From positions 7,737 to 71,736 of the forward strand of contig JBAYHW010000003.1 of the NCBI GenBank assembly GCA_041665925.1: a stretch of DNA of 64,000 nucleotides, given 5' to 3'. Of this stretch, positions 3,154 to 62,443 are shown piece by piece. This DNA is from Minisyncoccota bacterium. GTDB lineage: Bacteria > Patescibacteriota > Minisyncoccia > Phycocordibacterales > UBA9973. The translations under genes and the position numbers were made by a program. Each line of letters begins with the position of its first letter. Position 1 is the first letter of the stretch. The notes under the pieces are model-generated. The model saw only the letters and a list, made by a program, of their open reading frames with translations, was not told the DNA's origin and searched no databases.

Positions 3154-5199
3154 CTACTGTACATCATTATTGTTTAAAACTTTTATTACAACTCCCTGCA
3201 TTTGAATTTCTTCGTTCGATTTAAATTTCAATGGTTGGTGCTTGGAATTATCTGAGCGAGGATAGAGAACGATGAGACCATTTTCCCTACGATACTCTTT
3301 AATAGTAGCATCATCCCCAATTAGTGCCACAACCTTTTTCCCTTCTTCTGGTCTATAGTTTTTAACGCACAAAACAAGATCACCGTCATTTATTCCTGCT
3401 TTATTCATAGAATCTCCGGAAACACGCAAAACAAAATATTTTGAACCAGAAGACATATAATCCTTTCGAACAGAAATCATTTCTTGAACTGTTGGATCAG
3501 CATACATCAACTCGCCACAACCCACCGATTCAAACACGGGAACTTTTACCATTTCAAAAGTATATGGAGAGGCAATCTCTTCCTTTATCCTCTCTGGGGA
3601 ACTTGTAGGTATAGTCTTGTTATTTATAATTTTTTTGAAATATTCTCGAAGATTGTCGTCAACAATATAAATGTAAGTACCTTTTATTCCCCGAGTCAAA
3701 AGTGTCCGGTATATATTTATGATATATCTCTCTAATTCTTTAGGGTCTGCTACACCAGCGTGACCATTGCGATCACAATATTTACTCTTATCTACTACAA
3801 TCTTATTTTCATCTTTATCATAGGTAAGCTCTGGTCCAACAATGACGCCAACATAATTCATGCCGTAACCCTGGACTGTATGTATACAACCTACTTCATT
3901 AACTGCATTAGGAGAGTTGACCCAATCTTTCGTTTTACTATTCCATCGAAACTTATGCCCCTTTATTTCAATATCAAAATCTTGCTCCGGTACGCCGTTA
4001 GCTGGATTCGTAACCCAGGGCCAAGCAAACCCTGCGACCATACGTGAAAGTCCTAATTTTTTATCTTTTTCCTTTATTGCTTTGTGCATTTCCGACACGT
4101 CATCAAAAATGCTTAGTTCATAATTTTTTAAATCTGGAAACTTTGCTTTTCTTTGATTGAGGGTATCATCGATAAATAGAATATAGTCTTCCCCTGCTTG
4201 AATCCGCATTTGCTTTGTGAGTTGATAAAAGCTGGCACCTTTTTGTCGCAGGTCTACGTCATCAATATCAGCAGGAAGTACACTCTGCCCTTGATCATAA
4301 AAAAACACTTGTCTTTTCGTATTCTTAAGAATCCAATCGAGTTGAGTTGCCTCTCTCGACAATCCCAGTTGTTTATTAATCTCATCGAATGCTTTGAATG
4401 CTGCCCCCAGATTTTTGCGCTTTTTTAGCCTATGTGCTTCATCCACAATAACCAAGTCATATGACTCGTTTGTAATATCATAAGGCCCAATGACCATATT
4501 TGATTTAAGCCCAGGCGTAGCTTTAAACACTTTCTGCAGGGTGCCTCGCAAGCTAGTCATGGGCGCAATCAATGCGATTTTGAGATGCTTCGTGCTCTCG
4601 TGGTCTTTTAAGTATTTTATTAAATATGTCGCCAAGATTGTTTTGCCTGTCCCAGCTACACCTTCTACTACATAAGTAGTGGCTTTCTCATTTTCAATAT
4701 CTTTTACTAATTTTTTAACAAAAATATATTGTTCCTCGGTTAACGCTTTATACGGCGAATACTTGAAAAGATCGCTATTTTCGATCTCATAAATTTCTTT
4801 TCGGATAAGTCCTTTCTTTATTAACTCTTTCCAGATTATTTCACATTTTGCTCGATATTCTGATCTTTGATAATAATTATGATTTCTTATTCCGTCATTT
4901 TTATTCTGTAACATAAGCGACCCCTCAGCAGCTAAATGTTCTATAAGAAAAGCTTCAATATCTAGCGCTGCTGATTTGTTATATGTTTCATCGGTAATTA
5001 TATGAGCTTTCTTTAGCCTTCTGCGTTCATCATTTTCATAGTGCTGTCTACTGCGATTGAAAAAGTTTGTTGTCTCACCCACATATGCCTCATTTGTCGT
5101 TTCGAGCAAATAAACCACGGGCCAATCACATCCGTAGTGATATTTGTGTACTTCTTCAAAACCTTGCGGATTAAATTCAAAAGTTTCTATTTGCGCCAT
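3154..5199 (-). CDS. fusion of a GIY-YIG-like N-terminus, a DUF2075/Schlafen-like SF1 P-loop NTPase and a C-terminal LexA-type S24 peptidase
   Basis: N-terminal YVGETTNFFNRSRQH. Walker A GVAGTGKT and Walker B/DEAH-like LVIVDEAHRL. The C-terminus VLRVSGDSMNKAGINDGDLV...VVALIGDDATIKEY aligns with the LexA catalytic domain, including the Ser in GDSM and the Lys dyad. Confidence 0.8.
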   Translation of the reverse strand: MAQIETFEFNPQGFEEVHKYHYGCDWPVVYLLETTNEAYVGETTNFFNRSRQHYENDERRRLKKAHIITDETYNKSAALDIEAFLIEHLAAEGSLMLQNKNDGIRNHNYYQRSEYRAKCEIIWKELIKKGLIRKEIYEIENSDLFKYSPYKALTEEQYIFVKKLVKDIENEKATTYVVEGVAGTGKTILATYLIKYLKDHESTKHLKIALIAPMTSLRGTLQKVFKATPGLKSNMVIGPYDITNESYDLVIVDEAHRLKKRKNLGAAFKAFDEINKQLGLSREATQLDWILKNTKRQVFFYDQGQSVLPADIDDVDLRQKGASFYQLTKQMRIQAGEDYILFIDDTLNQRKAKFPDLKNYELSIFDDVSEMHKAIKEKDKKLGLSRMVAGFAWPWVTNPANGVPEQDFDIEIKGHKFRWNSKTKDWVNSPNAVNEVGCIHTVQGYGMNYVGVIVGPELTYDKDENKIVVDKSKYCDRNGHAGVADPKELERYIINIYRTLLTRGIKGTYIYIVDDNLREYFKKIINNKTIPTSSPERIKEEIASPYTFEMVKVPVFESVGCGELMYADPTVQEMISVRKDYMSSGSKYFVLRVSGDSMNKAGINDGDLVLCVKNYRPEEGKKVVALIGDDATIKEYRRENGLIVLYPRSDNSKHQPLKFKSNEEIQMQGVVIKVLNNNDVQ

Positions 5200-5550: not shown

Positions 5551-5779
5551 TTTATTTCTTCCAATCCTTAATTTGAATCCCGCCGGGGATCTTTTTGACG
5601 ACCACTTTTTGCTTCTCCTTCCAGTTGAGCTTTCGGACAAGATCCATGGGTAAAGTGACAGCGAGCGATGCTCCGCCGACCTTGGTTAACTTCCTTATAT
5701 TGCTACTAGCTGATTTAGTTATTCCCATAAATACTTATTCGTTTACGCATTCGATTACGTACATCATACTCCAGCTAGG

Positions 5780-5919
5780 GGGTAAATTCAATCCCGTTAG
5801 AAGTCGCGAGGGATCTTATGACCCTCTACTTCTAACGGGACTAGTCTGAAAAAGAAATCGCCCCGACCGAAGCCGGGGCGACGAGCGTTCTGGCCGTGAG
5901 TACTAACTCGGCCAGAACG
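5780..5919 (-). terminator. cluster of three GC-rich hairpins downstream of the small GC-rich ORF
   Basis: cccgttagaagt...acttctaacggg, cgccccgaccgaagccggggcg, and gttctggccg...cggccagaac, which overlaps the stop codon. Confidence 0.45.
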
Positions 5920-6117
5920 TGATGAGGAACGGGAGCGCGACGGCCAGGGCTGTGGCGCCCCATCCGACCTGAAGCACCCGCCGCCGCAAGAAGACGAAGG
6001 GCTGTTGAGGCTCCTTGTCCTCGGCGATACGCAGCCGAAGCAACCCAGCACCGGCGAACGCCACTAGCGCCAGCGCTACCAGCACGAGGATCAAAACGTC
6101 AATTGGATTCATCTTAT
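5903..6117 (-). CDS. small 2-TM hydrophobic protein encoded in a GC-rich islet (about 62% GC)
   Basis: MNPIDVLILVLVALALVAFAGAG... with a strong AAGGAGGAG RBS. The composition is foreign to the surrounding genome. Confidence 0.4.
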
Positions 6118-10357: not shown

Positions 10358-10443
10358 AAATTTTTATAATTAGTTGTTAATATAGACCTAACTATTATGC
10401 CGTATGTGAAGAGATTTGATTTCAATTATTTTTATATCTCAAC

Positions 10444-11631: not shown

Positions 11632-11714
11632 ATATTTTTCTATTAATTATTATTGTTAATTACGACTAATAAAGACCTACATATAATGCCGTAGAGATAT
11701 AGAATTTATTTCAA

Positions 11715-12653
11715 TTATTTATTAGCGGAACACTTGACCTGAAGCTCAGCGAGGTCAGCCGCGGTCGCCACTTGATTGTCGCCTTGATTGAGCTCGTACA
11801 TTATCGCTTTCGGATCCTTCACATGCTCCAGGGCGAGAGCGTGCCCTAATTCATGAGCTAAAACACGCACAAGCTTTTCCCTACTACTAAATTCATAAAT
11901 ATCTATTTCCCTCTTTATCTCCTCCTCGATATATACTCCTTCTTCGAAAGACTCTCCGCGAGAAATATTTATGTCATTGTATTTTTCTACCGTGAGATTT
12001 AAAATTTTAGCCAATCTGTTAATCGCCACGACTATAGAGTTCACCTCAGAAGCTAATTCATTTACCTGCCTCTGTTTCTCTTCTAGTGTCCTACCGAGTG
12101 TCTGGAGAGCCTGGTGCTCTTTTTCTAATTTATTAAATTCATCTTCGGGGGCTCCGCCTTTTTTATTCCAAAAATTCACTTCTCGTTCGTAAGCACTCGT
12201 GCGAGCGTTGAAGGCGCTAATCTCTGCCTCGAGAGAACTTTTTTCTTTTTCATATTGAATCTTTAATGGTTCAAATTTTGCCCGCAGACTGTCGTACGAT
12301 GCCTTGTTGTCTTTCACTACAATGCCTAAGTCGTCGAGCTTGCTCGTAGCCTGCTGACGATAATCATATATAAGATTTATGGTTAAAACATTTGGTAATG
12401 TATTGGTAGGCTGATATTCGAAAAGATTCTTGCCATAAGGAGTCTCCCAGACTTGCTCTGCTTCTGACAATGCTTCCAGAAAATATTTCTCTGAAATACC
12501 GAAATTAATATTAAACTTGCCAATGTTATACGGTATGGGCTCGGTGCATGGTGCTGGCTGTAAAAATGGAATGTAATCCCGAAATGCATACACCACTGCT
12601 CCGAGAAAAATGAAAGTGGTGAAAAATTTTAAGATACTTGATATTAGCTTCAT
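11715..12653 (-). CDS. membrane-anchored matrixin-like zinc metalloprotease (metzincin)
   Basis: HELGHALALEH zinc motif plus an AIMY Met-turn. N-terminal TM and a coiled-coil middle region. Confidence 0.75.
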   Translation of the reverse strand: MKLISSILKFFTTFIFLGAVVYAFRDYIPFLQPAPCTEPIPYNIGKFNINFGISEKYFLEALSEAEQVWETPYGKNLFEYQPTNTLPNVLTINLIYDYRQQATSKLDDLGIVVKDNKASYDSLRAKFEPLKIQYEKEKSSLEAEISAFNARTSAYEREVNFWNKKGGAPEDEFNKLEKEHQALQTLGRTLEEKQRQVNELASEVNSIVVAINRLAKILNLTVEKYNDINISRGESFEEGVYIEEEIKREIDIYEFSSREKLVRVLAHELGHALALEHVKDPKAIMYELNQGDNQVATAADLAELQVKCSANK

Positions 12654-12658
12654 TTTAT

Positions 12659-12688
12659 TTTACTTGCTAGGTCTTGCCTAGCAAGTTT
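12659..12688. repeat. REP-like palindromic element, copy A: ttacttgctaggtcttgcctagcaagtttc
   Basis: Identical 30-mer at 13829-13858 and a partial inverted copy at 13384-13395. Confidence 0.7.
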
Positions 12689-13352
12689 CTATATCATTAT
12701 AAGATAACCATTCGAAAATTTCTCTTTTAAAAACTTCGGGTGATGAAAAATATCTTGGATAGTCCTTATAATTTATAATACCATTTTGCTTTCGCACCTT
12801 GCCTATGTAATCCGGATAACTCGAAAAATAATATTTTTGCAAAAAATCTATGGCTTTTGTTTTATTTTTTATACCATTTTCCTTCCAGTCCCCTTGAATC
12901 AATTTGACCGGGTTCAAATGTATATAGGAAAAAATGTATTTCAAATATCTATCATCTCCTAAATGCTCTGATTTAAATTTCCCCTCAAAAAGTCCGCCTG
13001 TTCTTTTATATTTATTATTAAAATACATTACATATGCTGTACTTACTTTCTGCATAAATTTACTGATACCATTTTCCTCTTTTTCAGTTACTAGGATATG
13101 AAAATGGTTAGGCATCAGTACAAAAGACCCGATACTTATCAAGGGCTTGCCTCTTTCAAAAAGATACGGGTCCTTTTCTTTCGTATTTTCCACTAAGAAA
13201 TTCCGAAAATTATTAGTCCCATTACAGGTATACAAAAGAGTGATAAAACGGTAATAATCTTCTTTTTCGAGAAAAATTTTTTGTTTACTATTCCCGCGAT
13301 TATACAAATGATAGTATTCTCCTACAGCAAATGATGTAGTGCGTACTGACAT
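12678..13352 (-). CDS. IS200-like Y1 (HUH) transposase, RAYT-like (REP-associated tyrosine transposase)
   Basis: YHLYNRG N-terminal motif, HUH motif MPNHFHILV, and catalytic Tyr in YIHLNPVK. At 224 aa it is longer than a classic IS200 TnpA, as RAYTs are. Confidence 0.8.
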   Translation of the reverse strand: MSVRTTSFAVGEYYHLYNRGNSKQKIFLEKEDYYRFITLLYTCNGTNNFRNFLVENTKEKDPYLFERGKPLISIGSFVLMPNHFHILVTEKEENGISKFMQKVSTAYVMYFNNKYKRTGGLFEGKFKSEHLGDDRYLKYIFSYIHLNPVKLIQGDWKENGIKNKTKAIDFLQKYYFSSYPDYIGKVRKQNGIINYKDYPRYFSSPEVFKREIFEWLSYNDIETC

Positions 13353-13416: not shown

Positions 13417-13821
13417 TTAGTCAATCAAATTTTTAACCTTTAAATCATCAAAAACAAACTGACTTACAAGAGAGGTCAGTTCCTTCTTCGAGTAGTGAAA
13501 CCAGTCAATTGCACCTATTTCATTACTTGGCTTAAGTGTTCCTTGGTATTTTGCCTGATAGCATTTTAATTTAACTATCGTCCCTTCAGGCTTGCCATGC
13601 GCTTGAGCCTCGAAGGTCCCATAATACAATATAGTAACTGGATCTAAATCGACATTCAATTCCTCTTTGATTTCTCGTACAAGGGCTTGTTCATCACTTT
13701 CACCTTCTTCGCGTTTTCCGCCAGCAAAATACCAAGTATCCTTATTATGACTACGAGTTACCAAAACTTTTCGGTCTTGTATTTCAATAAGGGCTGATTT
13801 GTAGATGTATGTTTTTCCCAT
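13417..13821 (-). CDS. NUDIX hydrolase
   Basis: Nudix box GGKREEGESDEQALVREIKEELNV. Confidence 0.8.
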   Translation of the reverse strand: MGKTYIYKSALIEIQDRKVLVTRSHNKDTWYFAGGKREEGESDEQALVREIKEELNVDLDPVTILYYGTFEAQAHGKPEGTIVKLKCYQAKYQGTLKPSNEIGAIDWFHYSKKELTSLVSQFVFDDLKVKNLID

Positions 13822-13828
13822 TTTTTTC

Positions 13829-13866
13829 TTACTTGCTAGGTCTTGCCTAGCAAGTTTCCTAGCAAG
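13829..13866. repeat. REP-like palindromic element, copy B, plus an extra half-site cctagcaag
   Basis: Identical to 12659-12688. Confidence 0.7.
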
Positions 13867-58974: not shown

Positions 58975-59239
58975 TTGATTGCTGAGCCGTTGATCGGGAT
59001 TGAACCGATGACCTCGTCATTCGTTTACACCCCTATTTCACCACATCGGCTTATAAGAGGACTAGACTGTATCTTACGCATACCTTTCGGTGTAGCGTCC
59101 CTTGTCAGTCGTTCGGGCGAAATTTCTTTCGCCACGGTCTTGTCCTTTACAGGATATTAACCGTAATTCGGGATTCACAAACAAGTTTCCCTGCAAGTGG
59201 GCTATTAACGATAACCAATGACGTGCTCTACCAACTGAG
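58975..59239 (-). tRNA. tRNA-Thr (anticodon GGU) interrupted by a group I intron of about 192 nt at anticodon loop position 36/37. The intron spans about 59012-59203.
   Basis: 5-prime exon gccgttgtagctcagttggtagagcacgtcattggt. 3-prime exon aatgacgaggtcatcggttcaatcccgatcaacggct. The acceptor is perfectly paired and the anticodon stem cgtca/tgacg is restored on splicing. The intron has an R-like element cgaacgactgacaag and an S-like element gtaagatacagtctagtcc. The 5-prime exon ends in U and the intron ends in G. Confidence 0.6.
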
Positions 59240-59614
59240 CTACAACGGCAAAACGACTTTTCGACCTACCAAAACAGCTACAACGGCAACACTCAATCAT
59301 ACTAGTGCATTTTTACTTATTTTGCAAAAACCTTTACCTGATATATAAATAATTTACTTATTAAGTTCTTTCTCTGCTTGGTTGGCTAAGTCAATGATGA
59401 CACCTATTTCTTCCATCGTCAGTTTTTAGGCTTTGTATCTAAAATAACCAACCTATTAACTGCTTCAATTCTTTTTTCTTCATCTACCCCCGTTGGCGCA
59501 TTTTGCATCAATTAATAATACAATTTTTAATTGCGTCTGTAAATAAAAACACACAGAGGTTATCCCCATTTAACTTGAAAAGAGTTTTTAATTCAAGCGA
59601 GGAACTGCGGTTCA

Positions 59615-59965
59615 TTATTTAAAAATATTATAATGAGAAGTAACAAAAATAAAAGCAATCGCTAAGACAAAAAATACCAGCACCCCAAAAGCAATTGCCT
59701 TGTTTGATCCAATTTTAGGCGCAAAATAAATAATAGTAATCATATACGGTATCCATGATACAATAGTTCCCCACAAAACAAACTTAGCATGTTGACTTAC
59801 GGCAAATCCTCCTCCTAGGTGTCCTATAAAAATATAGGAAATGAGAGTAAAAACTGGAATAAGAGCCATAAAACCAGACAACGGACGAAAACCTCTCTCT
59901 TCAAGAAAGACTATCAAGGTAGTAAATAGCCCGCCACTTATGAAATAAATAATTAAATTTTTCAT
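59615..59965 (-). CDS. small 4-TM membrane protein
   Basis: Hydrophobic ORF. Confidence 0.5.
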   Translation of the reverse strand: MKNLIIYFISGGLFTTLIVFLEERGFRPLSGFMALIPVFTLISYIFIGHLGGGFAVSQHAKFVLWGTIVSWIPYMITIIYFAPKIGSNKAIAFGVLVFFVLAIAFIFVTSHYNIFK

Positions 59966-59976
59966 TTATAAATATT

Positions 59977-60072
59977 ACCACAGTTCCCCGTCCACTACAC
60001 CCGTGAACTTTATATGCTTATTTTATTGAGTTAAAACCTTTGCGCGAACTAGTGAACGGTGTTAGAACTGCT
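59977..60072. repeat. repeat element of about 95 bp bounded by inverted repeats, copy 1, with an extended -10 (TGGTAATAT) facing the downstream minus-strand gene
   Basis: About 85-90% identical to copies at 60509-60603 and 61329-61426. Termini cagttccccgtccactac and ctagtgaacggtgttagaactg are inverted repeats. Confidence 0.65.
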
Positions 60073-60495
60073 ATTTTGCTGAATCATTTGAGTATTTTTT
60101 CTAAGAGAAAGGTATGAGATTTCTATAATTACAAAAGCTAACAAAACAATGGCGGTCATGGTCATAATCCCACCCGTCCATGCTAGTTCAGTTTTAGTTG
60201 AAGAAGATAATAAATAGACTATGTATAAAAATAAGATTACGGGTGGTAACGGCAAAGCAAAAGCGGCCCAGTGTTTGTCTTTTCTAAAAGCCAGAGCAAT
60301 TATTATTGAGAGTACACCAACGATAAGCCAAAACACTGCTTCAGTAAAACCCTGTGATAATGAAATCCCGTAGTAATACTGATTACCAGTATCTTGAGTT
60401 GCGAGCCTTATTAAGTGCAATAAATTATTTACACCGCCATAAAAACCAATGAGCAAACCTAGGAGCACATTAATAATTATAAAAAATGTTTTCAT
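60049..60495 (-). CDS. 4-TM membrane protein
   Basis: Hydrophobic ORF. Its last 8 codons overlap the repeat arm. Confidence 0.5.
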   Translation of the reverse strand: MKTFFIIINVLLGLLIGFYGGVNNLLHLIRLATQDTGNQYYYGISLSQGFTEAVFWLIVGVLSIIIALAFRKDKHWAAFALPLPPVILFLYIVYLLSSSTKTELAWTGGIMTMTAIVLLAFVIIEISYLSLRKNTQMIQQNSSSNTVH

Positions 60496-60508
60496 ATACC
60501 CAAATCAT

Positions 60509-60603
60509 ACCATAGTTCAAGTCCAATACACCCGTGAACTTTCTGTCCTTATTTTATTGAGTCAAAACCTTGGCGCGACTTAGTGGATGGTGTTAGAACT
60601 ACT
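60509..60603. repeat. repeat element of about 95 bp, copy 2 (extended -10 TGGTATGAT)
   Basis: See copy 1. Confidence 0.65.
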
Positions 60604-60633
60604 TTTCATCTTGTTTAAATTTTATTTCATTTC

Positions 60634-61284
60634 CTAATAAAGCGACCAGGTTAGGAGAGCGGCAATATCATATGCTGCCAAATGAATCATGAAGTTATAT
60701 ACATAGCCATTTCTTACCTTCAATAACATATAAGGAAATATAAACGAAGCTAATATCGCAAAGAAAGTGAAACCAAGGCCAATAATTGTATCCGCTTTGA
60801 ATATTAGAAAAATGTGAATAGCTCCGAAAAATACAACAAAAAGTGTGATTATCTTCTTTAAGCTCATGCCAGATTGATACAATTTAGTCACCAAAATAGT
60901 GATTAGTAGTTGTTGCACGAATATTTCAAGTGGTTTTGCATAAATAAAGAAATTATTCATTAGTAAAAAGGAAATCCCACGACTCTCAAATGGCCATGCG
61001 GGTTGATCCACAAAATTGAGAATAAAATAAGAAGTAATCCCATGAAAAATAAGGGGGAGAACAACAAGAATAATAAACTCATGCCTGTGTGTTCTCTGTA
61101 TAACTTCAGTAAATACTTTTTTGAAAAAGACCATAAGTGCTAGTGCCATGAGGGACAAAAATGACCCAATTAAGATGTATCTACTGTGAGTAAATATCAG
61201 GCTGGGAAATAAAGTAGTAACACTGAAAGCCAACACAAAAAAGAGTATCGGGGATGTGGTGTTGTTTTTAATTAAAGAAACCAT
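60634..61284 (-). CDS. polytopic membrane protein (6-7 TM)
   Basis: Hydrophobic ORF. No convincing CPBP motifs. Confidence 0.5.
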   Translation of the reverse strand: MVSLIKNNTTSPILFFVLAFSVTTLFPSLIFTHSRYILIGSFLSLMALALMVFFKKVFTEVIQRTHRHEFIILVVLPLIFHGITSYFILNFVDQPAWPFESRGISFLLMNNFFIYAKPLEIFVQQLLITILVTKLYQSGMSLKKIITLFVVFFGAIHIFLIFKADTIIGLGFTFFAILASFIFPYMLLKVRNGYVYNFMIHLAAYDIAALLTWSLY

Positions 61285-61328
61285 TTTTTATACAATAAAA
61301 TAAATCGGGGTTATTTATACCAAAATCA

Positions 61329-61426
61329 TACCACAGTTCCCCGTCCACTACACCCGTGAAGTTTTTGTGCTTATTTTATTGAGTTAAAACCTTTGCGCGG
61401 GCTAGTGTATGACATTAGAACTGCTT
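61329..61426. repeat. repeat element of about 95 bp, copy 3 (extended -10 TGGTATGAT)
   Basis: See copy 1. Confidence 0.65.
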
Positions 61427-61504
61427 TTGAAGAAAAAAACGATACCACAATCTATATCCCCCAACTAGTATAAAATATCGTCAGTATCGTAAATAGCTTA
61501 CAAA

Positions 61505-62443
61505 TTAAAAATACTTTGGAAAAACAGTTTTAAACTTTTCAGCTACCGCTAGAAGCCACGAAAAGTAGATTTCCCATTTTCCCTCATCTTCAAAGTTACC
61601 AGGATAAGAAAGTCTTATACGACTAGCTTTCTTCTCTGGAAGCTCCATCCATTCCAGACTTTCCGATAAATCAGATTGAATTTTATCCTTGTTTTCAAAG
61701 AAATGCTGAAAAAGCTCTTTGTTGTCGGGGATGTATATATCGCAAGTAAAAACTTCATCTCTAGTGTTCACTGTCAGTGCAATATGGCAATCACTATTAC
61801 CGATACTTATATTAGTCCAATGTTGAGGATAACTTTTTTGAAACCGAAGAGTTGTTTTAGCCTGCTTGGCATAACTTTTGAAGGAATCCCAGAATTGTAG
61901 TTGTTTTATTTTAGTATCCGTAAGTTCAGCGCTTTCGGCAGAACTTTTCACTGCCTTGGCCCAATCGTTAGGTTTTGAAATGATTTCAAATTTTGGAGCT
62001 AATGGAGAGTCAGCAATTTGCCAAAGTTCAATCTTTAATAAATAAAACCCGATTTCTTCATTTGTATTTTCGTTTAACCAATCAATAGCTTGTCTATGCT
62101 CCTCTCTCACATCCTTTACTACCCATACAATAATTCTAGCATCGTAGCCAGAGGCATAGGTGATAATTTTACCTAAATGATCGTGATTAGTAACTTCCAA
62201 TTGATTTTCAATAATGATCTTATGCCCTGTAGTTTCTTCTTCTGCTAAAATATCAACATTAAAACTTCCAACTTTTGCCTCAGTCTGTATTAGTTTAATA
62301 TCAAACCCAATTTCATCACTCAAAAGCTTGAGATTTTCCTCTTGCGCTAGCCATTGTGTAAAATCATTAGCTTCGTGTCTCCATCCCTCTCTTAATTCAA
62401 TTTTCTTTAGTTTGCCTAGATTCATATTTTTATTATACAACAT
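61505..62443 (-). CDS. PD-(D/E)XK nuclease-like (NucS/DUF91-like N-terminus) protein with a DUF4268-like C-terminus
   Basis: The N-terminal segment (WRHEANDFTQWL...KVGSFNVDILAEEETTGHKIIIENQL...HDHLGKIITYASGY) fits a restriction-endonuclease-like fold pattern. Tentative. Confidence 0.4.
   Translation of the reverse strand: MLYNKNMNLGKLKKIELREGWRHEANDFTQWLAQEENLKLLSDEIGFDIKLIQTEAKVGSFNVDILAEEETTGHKIIIENQLEVTNHDHLGKIITYASGYDARIIVWVVKDVREEHRQAIDWLNENTNEEIGFYLLKIELWQIADSPLAPKFEIISKPNDWAKAVKSSAESAELTDTKIKQLQFWDSFKSYAKQAKTTLRFQKSYPQHWTNISIGNSDCHIALTVNTRDEVFTCDIYIPDNKELFQHFFENKDKIQSDLSESLEWMELPEKKASRIRLSYPGNFEDEGKWEIYFSWLLAVAEKFKTVFPKYF

Follow-up and report, generated by a model that had tools for sequence, protein, structure and literature searches.

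A ~100-nt promoter-bearing repeat before unrelated genes at a tRNA-bounded locus of a Minisyncoccota bacterium: candidate junctions of single-gene cassettes

Among CPR bacteria, genomes are very small, recognisable regulators are few and mobile elements are poorly known. A 64,000-nt stretch from a Minisyncoccota bacterium (GenBank assembly GCA_041665925.1, contig JBAYHW010000003.1, positions 7,737–71,736), called the window below, contains three consecutive membrane-protein genes that each follow a copy of the same ~100-nt repeat. What is this repeat, and how did it come to stand before these genes? The repeats are read here, at about even confidence and from the DNA sequence, as possible att-like junctions of tandem single-gene cassettes between tRNA-Asp and tRNA-Thr, each cassette having its own promoter.

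Repeat copies and adjacent genes

A repeat search of the 64-kb window identified one family with three 106-nt copies at 59970–60075, 60501–60606 and 61323–61428. Two conserved cores occur exactly 3 times each in the window, where shuffled sequences give expectations of 0.00 and 0.04. Pairwise identity over 100 nt is 88% for W1/W3, 82% for W1/W2 and 81% for W2/W3. The three copies reported in the first-pass annotation were thus recovered, while its identity of 85–90% was slightly too high and becomes 81–88%. The minus strand is the sense strand of the elements and of the three genes behind them. The features of the array are as follows.

59601..59608, minus strand: W0, GCAGTTCC (first 8 nt of the element), 6 nt past the gene 1 stop codon
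59615..59965, minus strand: putative cassette gene 1, 116 aa, four hydrophobic segments, weak GlpM (PF06942) match of 26 bits
59972..60071, minus strand: W1 element copy, 5′ of gene 1
59981–59986, minus strand: W1 3′ arm GAACTG
59990–60007, minus strand: W1 segment TTCACGGGTGTAGTGGAC
60017–60040, minus strand: W1 invariant core AAGGTTTTAACTCAATAAAATAAG
60041–60071, minus strand: W1 5′ module GCAGTTCTAAC...TTCGCGCA
60049..60495, minus strand: putative cassette gene 2, 148 aa, four hydrophobic segments, no family match
60503..60602, minus strand: W2 element copy, subtype B, 5′ of gene 2
60634..61284, minus strand: putative cassette gene 3, 216 aa, polytopic membrane protein, no family match
61325..61424, minus strand: W3 element copy, 5′ of gene 3

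The tail of the gene 2 ORF extends into W1. The 8-mer GCAGTTCC occurs once in the window, at the W0 site beyond the last gene of the array, and W0 may be a vestigial fourth (terminal) copy. The variable region has 33% GC content against 39% in the rest of the window; the elements themselves have 40–43%.

All three proteins contain at least four hydrophobic 19-residue segments, and gene 1 alone among them has a Pfam match. BLASTP detected no mutual similarity (all E > 0.08), which bears out their earlier description as unrelated membrane proteins. Tandem duplication of an ancestral gene-plus-promoter unit, raised in the first-pass annotation as the explanation that would overturn its own, is excluded because the downstream proteins are unrelated and retain no residual similarity.

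A second array and its bearing on a transposon-like origin

Pattern scans of genome and metagenome collections located copies outside the window's array in only one other Paceibacterota genome, again confined to a syntenic array, and no dispersed copies were found in the ~71 kb of the contig. Matches on viral contigs (three patterns, 12 loci) covered the half-motif only at nhmmer E > 0.002, and were attributed to chance. The element sample therefore comprises two genomes, with six full copies (W1–W3, La, Lb and Lc) and three partial ones (W0, Ld and Le).

Both arrays lie in the same order of genes: tRNA-Met, tRNA-Met, tRNA-Asp, array, tRNA-Thr and prfB. Their gene content has nothing in common. 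The genes behind the copies in the second genome, which include GrpB, a serine hydrolase and a VanW-like protein, are also mutually unrelated. The elements are 75–87% identical between the genomes and prfB DNA is 67% identical; none of the other non-tRNA non-coding DNA of the two loci aligns. The nearest relative of W2 is La of the second genome (87% identity), and subtype B, with members W2, La and Lb, is hence present in both genomes. Lb is a mosaic in which a 5′ third of the Lc/Ld type is joined to the 3′ part of La, and Ld and Le are half-copies with the 5′ third only. The breakpoints of Lb, Ld and Le all fall directly after CGCGCA (3/3). Le and W0 are half-copies at gene 3′ ends without a same-orientation gene downstream. 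No recombinase is visible within ~11.6 kb of distinct sequence in the second genome. The element is absent from the prfB neighbourhoods of five close relatives, reached via RF2 (nine loci), where the prfB locus is nonetheless a hot spot, occupied by integrases or a diversity-generating retroelement.

The first-pass annotation had proposed a mobile promoter cassette, MITE-like, as one option, and the two parts of that label fared differently. Upstream regions at least 80% identical over 50–100 nt before non-homologous genes are what the operational definition of a putative mobile promoter (PMP) describes, and the elements show them. A MITE with an outward promoter, Correia-like and moved by a transposase encoded elsewhere, is very unlikely, although the imperfect terminal inverted repeats, the length of about 100 nt, the promoter at one end and the A/T-rich centre all resemble one. 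No copy has a target-site duplication: the sequence 5′ of each copy is rich in A, that on its 3′ side is TGGTAT, and the two flanks have no direct repeat. The copies share one orientation and cluster in a single array, IS elements with matching ends were not seen, and neither the 71 kb of contig nor the metagenome-wide scan gave the dispersed copies that such an element would leave.

Promoters and the regulatory alternative

The gene-proximal end of the element is an extended −10 of the form TRTGnTAnnAT, found in 6/6 full copies and with no −35 box beside it. In the window it is placed as follows.

59972–59980, minus strand: W1 extended −10 TGGTAATAT, 6 nt before the ATG at 59965
60504–60512, minus strand: W2 extended −10 TGGTATGAT, 8 nt before the ATG at 60495
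61325–61333, minus strand: W3 extended −10 TGGTATGAT, 40 nt before the ATG at 61284

The gap from the −10 to the start codon is 6–8 nt in 4/6 full copies, and longer leaders are predicted for W3 and Lc. From gaps of 6, 8 and 40 nt, two transcripts of the window are predicted to have no leader or almost none, and the third a leader of ~33 nt. A TAnnnT hexamer lies 6–8 nt before the ATG in 20 of the 55 ATG genes of the window, and TGn-extended hexamers fall at this distance in 9 of 13 cases. No gene of the window has a Shine-Dalgarno-like motif within 12 nt of its start codon. Since a −10 at 6–8 nt from the start is a signature across the genome, leaderless promoters are well supported, and the extended −10 sequences of the elements appear to be genuine promoters set for leaderless transcription. 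The two leaderless transcripts of the first-pass annotation agree with the window-wide −10 peak. With a predicted transcription start at or next to the ATG, each cassette would have its own leaderless promoter and the element would lie outside the 5′ UTR. An ECF-sigma or −35 reading of GGAAC and TTGACT was rejected because the spacings are unsuitable. Boxes resembling a −10 are present 5′ of W3, W2, Lb, Lc and Ld and absent 5′ of W1 and La, where the preceding ORF abuts the element; an sRNA gene with its own upstream promoter was dropped on account of this inconsistency among copies.

The alternative is a shared control region, the other option named in the first-pass annotation. The element would then be a promoter-plus-operator DNA module, bound by a transcription factor at GTTCAC/GTGGAC half-sites and spread by duplication or gene conversion (‘promoter propagation’); having spread to unrelated genes, it would make the three genes a small regulon. 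Spaced by 11 bp, the half-sites would make up a direct repeat from about −103 to −87, with a 6-7-6 dyad centred near −34 and the A/T-rich centre as an UP element or bending site. Several features fit: the elements conform to the PMP definition, the −35 position, which has no −35 box, is overlapped by the dyad GTTCACnnnnnnnGTGGAC, the centre is A-rich at −62 to −40, and the stem changes without covariation, as protein-binding half-sites would give. An OmpR-type response regulator and a histidine kinase are encoded about 7–10 kb from the array. This pair, however, is conserved core synteny also in relatives without the element, and no regulator gene adjoins either array. A regulatory module leaves unexplained the confinement to one tRNA-bounded locus in two genomes with different genes, the half-copies Le and W0 without a same-orientation gene downstream, and a 9-nt repeat that flanks the recombinase element described below. 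This reading is rather unlikely.

Inverted repeats and the hairpin alternative

The ends of the element are inverted repeats with imperfect arms of 6 and 10 bp. Over 21 pairs (CAGTTC/GAACTG, CCGTTCACTA/TAGTGGACGG and an inner CG stem), 82% of cells are paired, against 31–52% when the partner is slid by 1–3 columns, and the terminal inverted repeats noted earlier are confirmed by this comparison. The best-conserved part is the centre, AAGGTTTTRACTCAATAAAATAAG, which is invariant in 5/6 full copies.

Such pairing could act in RNA. Read-through from the upstream gene would place a long imperfect hairpin on the sense strand, as a terminator/insulator or a 3′-UTR stability or processing element; its U-rich tail would overlap the next −10 box and part neighbouring leaderless units. 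Sense-strand folding exceeds that of shuffled sequences for W1 (z = −2.45) and W3 (z = −1.67), G-U pairs make up most of the non-Watson-Crick pairs of the sense strand (15, versus 3 on the opposite strand), the 3′ arm is followed by a U-rich stretch, and in W1, La, Le and W0 the 5′ module starts at the stop codon of the preceding gene or just past it. W2, however, folds at the shuffled level (z = −0.78), and half-copies are unable to form the hairpin. Covariation among the six sequences is not above shuffles, of which 136–145/500 reach the observed measures; there is 1 compensatory pair, and position 77 breaks a pair in 4/6 copies without compensation. The terminator scan gave nothing at the elements. 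Rfam searches of the window at the gathering threshold and of the region at E ≤ 10 returned two tRNAs and chance matches away from the copies, so that no match overlaps any copy even at E = 10. Conservation is also greatest in the 50-nt ‘loop’ and not in the stem. Of the hairpin RNA that the first-pass annotation had allowed for, the pairing stands and the RNA role does not gain support; a function of this kind is unlikely.

tRNA setting and recombinase element

Both arrays lie directly 3′ of tRNA-Asp, which precedes them in the same orientation. In the window's genome, a serine-recombinase/PrimPol element stands between tRNA-Asp and the first copy. The features that bound the array within the window are as follows.

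58984..59250, minus strand: tRNA-Thr(GGT) with a ~190-nt insertion in the anticodon loop, downstream boundary of the variable region
61505..62443, minus strand: DUF4268 gene, probable last gene of a ~10.6 kb integrated element

This ~10.6 kb element, which also carries a large serine recombinase and a Prim-Pol, is inferred to end at W3; its genes other than that for DUF4268 are located at and past the window end. The recombinase has 559 aa, is encoded on the reverse strand and abuts tRNA-Asp, in the window's genome only. A recombinase next to attL is thus seen for the ~10.6 kb element and not for the single-gene units.

The sequence AGTTCTAAC occurs in the 71 kb only in W1, in W2 and at a site 61 nt 3′ of tRNA-Asp, the point where the recombinase ORF leaves its conserved domain. 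The first 9 nt of W3, CAGTTCTAA, recur at the other putative end of the recombinase/Prim-Pol element, outside the window. With the AGTTCTAAC site 61 nt past tRNA-Asp, CAGTTCTAA is present on both flanks of the ~10.6 kb element. A box just past tRNA-Asp in the second genome is not claimed, the gapped search giving a near-match only and the ungapped search being negative.

The elements may also resemble the tRNA. tRNA-Asp with its flank aligns with them at z = 3.2–5.2, the sole one to do so among 10 tRNAs tested, and La and the tRNA-Asp region have GGTCGCGCAA in common. When the alignment was split, the similarity was weak: the 5′ module matched the last 24 nt of the tRNA marginally (p = 0.00–0.05, for this genome's tRNA-Asp only) and the 3′ module did not match the tRNA flank (p = 0.25–0.9). 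The module has about 5 extra nt relative to tRNA-Asp. A copy of the tRNA-Asp end plus flank as the origin of the whole element was rejected: the flank part is non-significant alone, and the element HMM misses the tRNA region.

Proposed cassette junctions

Under the proposal of tandem cassettes, the element would be composite. Its gene-proximal two thirds would consist of the A/T-rich invariant core and the extended −10. Its distal third, GYAGTTCYAAC...GTCGCGCA, with a T-loop-like box at the start and a finish like the 3′ end of tRNA-Asp, would be, or derive from, a recombination site for serial insertion of cassettes and larger elements, and the ~100-nt repeat would be the junction remaining between neighbouring insertions. 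The inserting enzyme would act in trans, with the 559-aa large serine recombinase by tRNA-Asp as the obvious candidate. The imperfect inverted repeat would serve as half-sites for protein binding, or fold as a single-stranded substrate, and would not be a regulatory RNA. Several observations count against the cassette reading, among them the weak likeness to the tRNA-Asp end once the alignment is split and the lack of a visible recombinase in the ~11.6 kb of the second genome. Neither an excision product nor an empty site or presence/absence polymorphism was seen. The crossover evidence splits between the 5′ box, indicated by the flanks of the recombinase element, and the CGCGCA end, indicated by the mosaic and half copies; and a simple att scar does not explain the conserved centre of the element.

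Arrays of small unrelated genes separated by imperfect palindromes also call to mind classical integrons: the copies would be attC sites of a cassette array or a CALIN, and an IntI tyrosine recombinase would act on their folded bottom strands. The repeat spacings of 531, 822 and 623 nt are within the cassette size range, the genes are small, unrelated and accessory, with an ANT(2′′)-like nucleotidyltransferase gene beside the array that has no element copy before it, each imperfect hairpin leaves some bases unpaired, and a YYYAAC box (TTCTAAC or TTCCAAC) stands close to the 5′ end of the element. The boxes at this end are TTCTAAC, TTCCAAC or TTCTAAT. The 3′ end of every copy, however, lacks a GTTRRRY box, and the terminal helix is CAGTTC/GAACTG and not R′′/R′. 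The centre is the most conserved part, while attC centres vary, and each unit has its own promoter. No PF00589 protein is found among the called genes in 21 kb round the array, which has a serine recombinase instead, nor in the ~11.6 kb of the second genome. An integron origin is extremely unlikely.

The cassette-junction proposal may extend beyond these two genomes. In three other genomes a homologue of gene 3 follows a tRNA gene directly on its 3′ side. In one case a module-like sequence follows (22/31 nt, a score that 0/300 shuffles reach), and an exact repeat of the end of tRNA-Asn, 14 nt long, closes the islet. The full element is absent near four gene 3 homologues in other genomes, and a module HMM gives the proposed relatives there no better than E = 2.4, which is not significant across the database. 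It is put forward tentatively, as possible though doubtful, that Paceibacterota (CPR) have an integron-independent cassette system. In such a system, genes with leaderless promoters would be captured serially at a T-loop-like box by a tRNA, by a large serine recombinase or another enzyme acting in trans, at a ~100-nt site that is perhaps folded as a single strand and whose 5′ part adapts to the 3′ end of the host tRNA (Asp here, Asn elsewhere).

Comparison with known systems

In Dehalococcoides, tandem islands are inserted at the T-loop of ssrA and bounded by repeats, with ~85 bp of surrounding conservation, and a ~540-aa serine recombinase is encoded on the reverse strand by attL, some islands being integrase-free (McMurdie et al. 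2011; PMC3146451). The locus described here is similar in that its variable region immediately follows a tRNA-type gene, about 85 bp round each repeat are conserved, the large serine recombinase is of ~540–560 aa and encoded on the reverse strand, and some units lack a recombinase of their own (cis-mobilisable, by accretion). Dehalococcoides repeats start in the T-loop and mimic the gene 3′ end; tandem units here are likewise separated by repeats, which have a T-loop-like box and may resemble the tRNA end. Unlike the multi-gene Dehalococcoides islands, the units here are single genes of 0.5–0.8 kb. The Dehalococcoides repeat is an exact 20 bp, whereas the one here is ~100 nt, matches the tRNA end loosely and holds the promoter of the next gene. 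The target differs from ssrA as well, and would be tRNA-Asp or a box about 60 nt beyond it, with recombination proposed from sequence.

Integrons likewise carry small unrelated genes in the same direction between imperfect-palindrome repeats of 60–140 nt, and chromosomal integrons have repeats conserved within an array, as here. Unlike integrons, this array has no R′′/R′ and no IntI, uses promoters of its own instead of Pc, and is anchored beside a tRNA gene. Putative mobile promoters are upstream regions of 50–100 nt with at least 80% identity before non-homologous genes, within a genome and across genera (Matus-Garcia et al. 2012; PMC3488235), and the elements share this likeness upstream of non-homologous genes. 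That category is descriptive and implies no mechanism; the copies here are confined to one array and reach back to where the gene before them ends. Correia elements and promoter MITEs (about 100–150 nt) also have terminal inverted repeats, an A/T-rich centre and a promoter out of one end, but their target duplications and many dispersed copies in both orientations have no counterpart here.

Significance

On the modest reading, the element is a portable leaderless promoter, with an extended −10, no −35 and no Shine-Dalgarno sequence, for a lineage without genetic tools. If the cassette proposal is true, the element and the recombinase would be a candidate recombinase/att pair for genome engineering, and the element would be a handy marker of strain-variable cargo in metagenomes. 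The cassette system would parallel integrons in function with different parts, and CPR cells would gain, and at once express, single accessory genes at a tRNA-linked hot spot.

Repeat family and predicted promoters

A repeat search of the region recovered a single family of three 106-nt copies (59970–60075, 60501–60606, and 61323–61428) with pairwise identities of 81–88% over 100 nt. Two blocks, AAGGTTTTRACTCAATAAAATAAG and TTCACGGGTGTAGTGGAC, are conserved best; the 64-kb window has exactly three occurrences of each, and shuffles predict 0.00 and 0.04. On the gene strand, one copy (W1, W2, and W3, respectively) lies directly 5′ of each of three genes:

59615–59965, minus strand, gene 1, 116 aa, GlpM match (26 bits)
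60049–60495, minus strand, gene 2, 148 aa
60634–61284, minus strand, gene 3, 216 aa

Each of the proteins is strongly hydrophobic and has four or more segments of membrane-spanning length. Genes 2 and 3 have no family matches; the GlpM match is limited to gene 1. The proteins share no similarity (every BLASTP E > 0.08), and therefore tandem duplication of an ancestral gene-plus-promoter unit, the case that the first-pass annotation saw as refuting its proposal, was rejected. Its description of three related elements 5′ of unrelated membrane-protein genes agrees with both searches. We put at about an even chance the reading of these ~100-nt repeats as cassette junctions with a promoter; its promoter component is far safer than its recombination component.

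Every copy closes, on the gene strand, with TRTGnTAnnAT:

W1 promoter box, CTGTGGTAATAT, 6-nt gap to the ATG
W2 promoter box, CTATGGTATGAT, 8-nt gap to the ATG
W3 promoter box, CTGTGGTATGAT, 40-nt gap to the ATG

Upstream regions of all long ORFs in the window were collected and motif offsets placed in a histogram. A TAnnnT hexamer ends 6–8 nt before the ATG in 20 of 55 ATG-start genes, and each remaining offset holds 0–7 genes. TGn-extended hexamers fall in the 6–8-nt bin in 9 of 13 cases. GGAG, GAGG, and AGGA are absent within 12 nt of every start in the set scanned. Together, the hexamer peak and the lack of Shine-Dalgarno-like motifs indicate that leaderless mRNAs from predicted −10 or extended −10 promoters are the rule in this organism. 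Conformity of the element's gene-proximal end to this rule is well supported by motif and spacing, as had been proposed from the placement of the extended −10; TGGTAnnAT lies 6–8 nt before the ATG in four of the six full copies of both genomes. With transcription predicted to start at or near the ATG, the mRNA of the downstream gene would exclude the ~90 nt upstream of the −10 box, and this speaks against a leader of the riboswitch type. A shared operator/promoter module is possible, and could coexist with the cassette reading.

Inverted repeat

The element had also been suggested to fold into a long hairpin RNA. The inverted repeat itself is real: 82% of cells pair (21 pairs) versus 31–52% with the partner slid. 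No copy matches Rfam at gathering thresholds or at E ≤ 10. Across six copies only one stem pair shows compensatory changes, covariation measures were reached by 136–145 of 500 shuffles, and one stem position is broken without compensation in four of the six. W2 folds no better than shuffled sequence. The inverted repeat thus resembles one that is decaying or is protein-defined. Single-strand folding is hinted at only by a mild surplus of G-U relative to C-A mismatches on the sense strand (15 vs 3). A terminator or insulator hairpin is possible and, like an operator, could coexist with cassette junctions.

The proposal of a MITE-like element was set aside. No copy has a target-site duplication, all are clustered in the same orientation, and no additional copies occur in the window or the adjoining 8 kb of the same contig.

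Copies in a second genome

The first-pass annotation had asked for a wider search for copies. When one genome per species was scanned for the exact pattern, a Candidatus Paceibacterota MAG (L001) was the only organism to match, and a looser scan of JGI metagenomes returned the same sequence only (L002). Viral-contig matches to the element patterns were dismissed as chance. L001 has three full copies (La, Lb, and Lc); the genes that follow them encode GrpB, a serine hydrolase, and a VanW-like protein. The first copy directly follows a gene for an ANT(2′′)-like nucleotidyltransferase, and a DUF6624 gene is situated between copies two and three. Profile search added two partial copies, Ld and Le, that keep the first ~31–34 nt alone. 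Ld precedes a 137-aa gene with a different, TATAAT, leaderless promoter; Le begins 3 nt past the stop codon of that gene, and no co-oriented gene follows. Lb is a mosaic, with its first third of the Lc/Ld type and the remainder identical to La. The junction in Lb and the truncations of Ld and Le all come directly after the invariant CGCGCA. The element is thus built of two modules, a 5′ module that tracks the preceding unit's end and a 3′ module that carries the promoter.

The two genomes represent clearly different lineages (prfB DNA identity of 67%). Their elements are 75–87% identical, and no other non-coding DNA aligns between the window and L001 except tRNA pieces. Either nearly every position is constrained or the element has moved between lineages. 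W2 shares more with La (87%) than with W1 or W3; subtypes are therefore common to both genomes.

tRNA-bounded locus

Two look-ups on the same 93-kb contig, part of a Paceibacterota MAG, gave the order past the window end (L030). In gene orientation, the source genome encodes GatA, a 211-aa gene, tRNA-Met, tRNA-Met, tRNA-Asp, a reverse-strand 559-aa large serine recombinase abutting tRNA-Asp, Prim-Pol, small ORFs, an 812-aa gene, a 366-aa gene, DUF4268, W3-gene 3, W2-gene 2, W1-gene 1, an intron-like split tRNA-Thr(GGT), an HNH gene, tRNA-Thr(CGT), VIT1, and prfB. L001/L002 encodes tRNA-Met, tRNA-Met, tRNA-Asp, Nudix, peptidase S51, nucleotidyltransferase, the array, two tRNA-Thr genes, and prfB. 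The matching order shows that both arrays hold the same tRNA-bounded locus. They have no gene content in common, and both are co-oriented with the tRNAs. The region has 33% GC versus 39% for the rest of the window, and the elements have 40–43%.

The prfB-upstream region is also variable in five other relatives, and the element is absent from it there. Contigs of the closest relatives (RF2 82–83% identical) stop just upstream of prfB or VIT1 (L013 1–75, L015 1–310, and L016 1–73), which fits a strain-variable or repeat-rich locus at which assemblies break. A relative (L017, likewise L018) encodes an RVT_1 reverse transcriptase and bAvd just downstream of prfB, with a 119-nt repeat pair of 84% identity (L017 11696–11814 and 12192–12310), the layout of a diversity-generating retroelement.

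The following features adjoin the array:

58984–59250, minus strand, tRNA-Thr(GGT), apparently split by a ~190-nt insertion in the anticodon loop
58447–58908, minus strand, HNH endonuclease ORF adjoining the split tRNA

Compared with the intact tRNA-Thr(GGT) of L001, the 5′ part (about 59214–59250) has 97% identity and the 3′ part (about 58984–59022) 90%. ARAGORN missed this gene, and Rfam gave a sub-threshold tRNA match alone (24.6 bits), with no group I intron match. A degenerate duplicate of the 5′ part is found at 59266–59292.

Recombinase and tRNA-Asp

Within 71 kb, the 9-mer that starts the element, AGTTCTAAC, occurs only in W1, in W2, and at L030 1540–1548, 61 nt 3′ of tRNA-Asp. At that point the recombinase ORF is already past its conserved domain (the family match stops at residue 510 of 559). 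Together with the start of W3, this box means that both inferred ends of a ~10.6-kb recombinase/Prim-Pol element carry CAGTTCTAA as a direct repeat of 9 nt. The 559-aa ORF as called (L030 1440–3119) enters the opposite-strand tRNA-Asp (region L030 1405–1479) by about 40 nt, and the ~49 residues at its end fall beyond the conserved recombinase domains, as though the ORF continued over an integration junction. ATTTACGATACTGACGATATT, a perfect 21-nt inverted repeat, joins the DUF4268-W3 spacer (61474–61494, or L030 12073–12093) to the 3′ end of the Prim-Pol gene (L030 3488–3508), 8.6 kb apart (self-BLAST E = 7e-4). No recombinase was found in the L001/L002 sequence examined. A putative vestigial terminal element copy is marked by the 8-mer GCAGTTCC, present a single time in the window, 6 nt past the gene 1 stop codon.

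Ten tRNAs with flanks were compared with the elements, and only the source genome's tRNA-Asp aligns (z = 3.2–5.2 for W1, W2, La, and Lb). The register places GTTCNAA over the T-loop and GGTCGCGCAA over the 3′ end. Scored apart, the tRNA and flank parts are marginal or not significant, and the second genome's own tRNA-Asp fits more poorly. The resemblance in sequence is only suggestive.

Gene 3 homologs and other repeats

Gene 3 has 26 homologs in Nomurabacteria and Paceibacterota. Neighborhoods were read in four other genomes:

L022, homolog 27 nt after tRNA-Asn (region 3645–5181)
L024, homolog 4 nt after the 3′ exon of a split tRNA (region 3490–4140)
L031, homolog just after tRNA-Leu (region 5778–6000)
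L025, homolog between three copies of a short related motif

Two of the three L025 motif copies are followed by the leaderless promoter TTGCTATAAT. In L022, the 31 nt that follow the gene match the W2 5′ module at 22 positions, ungapped, a score reached by 0 of 300 shuffles. This match terminates in the local tRNA-Asn acceptor sequence rather than that of tRNA-Asp, and the two-gene islet ends in an exact 14-nt repeat of the 3′ end of tRNA-Asn (E = 0.002). Because the module HMM falls short of database-wide significance on the distant matches (E = 2.4), these module-like sequences are treated as leads. A ~590-nt insertion splits the anticodon loop of the L024 tRNA gene (about 3490–4135). The insertion resembles an ORF-bearing intron, and its 110-aa ORF is preceded by a leaderless promoter of its own, TTTGTGGTATAAT.

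Elsewhere in the window, a 40-nt intergenic pair of 95% identity (12651–12689 and 13819–13858), containing the hairpin CTTGCTAGGCAAGACCTAGCAAG, lies upstream of genes 11715–12653 and 13417–13821. A further short intergenic pair (10378–10431 and 11667–11720) precedes different genes.

Interpretation

The closest described system is the tandem ssrA genomic islands of Dehalococcoides: they enter the gene at its T-loop, and the repeats at their borders copy its 3′ end, with ~85 bp of conserved sequence around them (PMC3146451). Next to attL, on the reverse strand, is the gene for a ~540-aa serine recombinase; some islands have no integrase, and these are proposed to move by accretion (PMC3146451). 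In contrast to those islands, the units here are single genes, and the repeat is longer, only loosely tRNA-like, and bears the promoter. Integron cassettes are a functional parallel, but the copies lack the defining attC features, and no IntI is called in the 21 kb around the array. The element falls within the purely descriptive category of putative mobile promoters (PMC3488235).

In the cassette reading, the ~100-nt repeat would be the junction between adjacent insertions. Its 3′ two thirds would be the leading arm of a cassette, holding that cassette's promoter, and its 5′ third the recombination-site part. Two candidate crossover positions emerge from these data, one at the 5′ box and one at the CGCGCA end. 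A simple scar leaves the invariant center unexplained; this center may act as an UP-like element, bind an accessory protein, or belong to the recombinase site. The most economical reading of the sequence is that this locus may be gathering small insertions through site-specific recombination.
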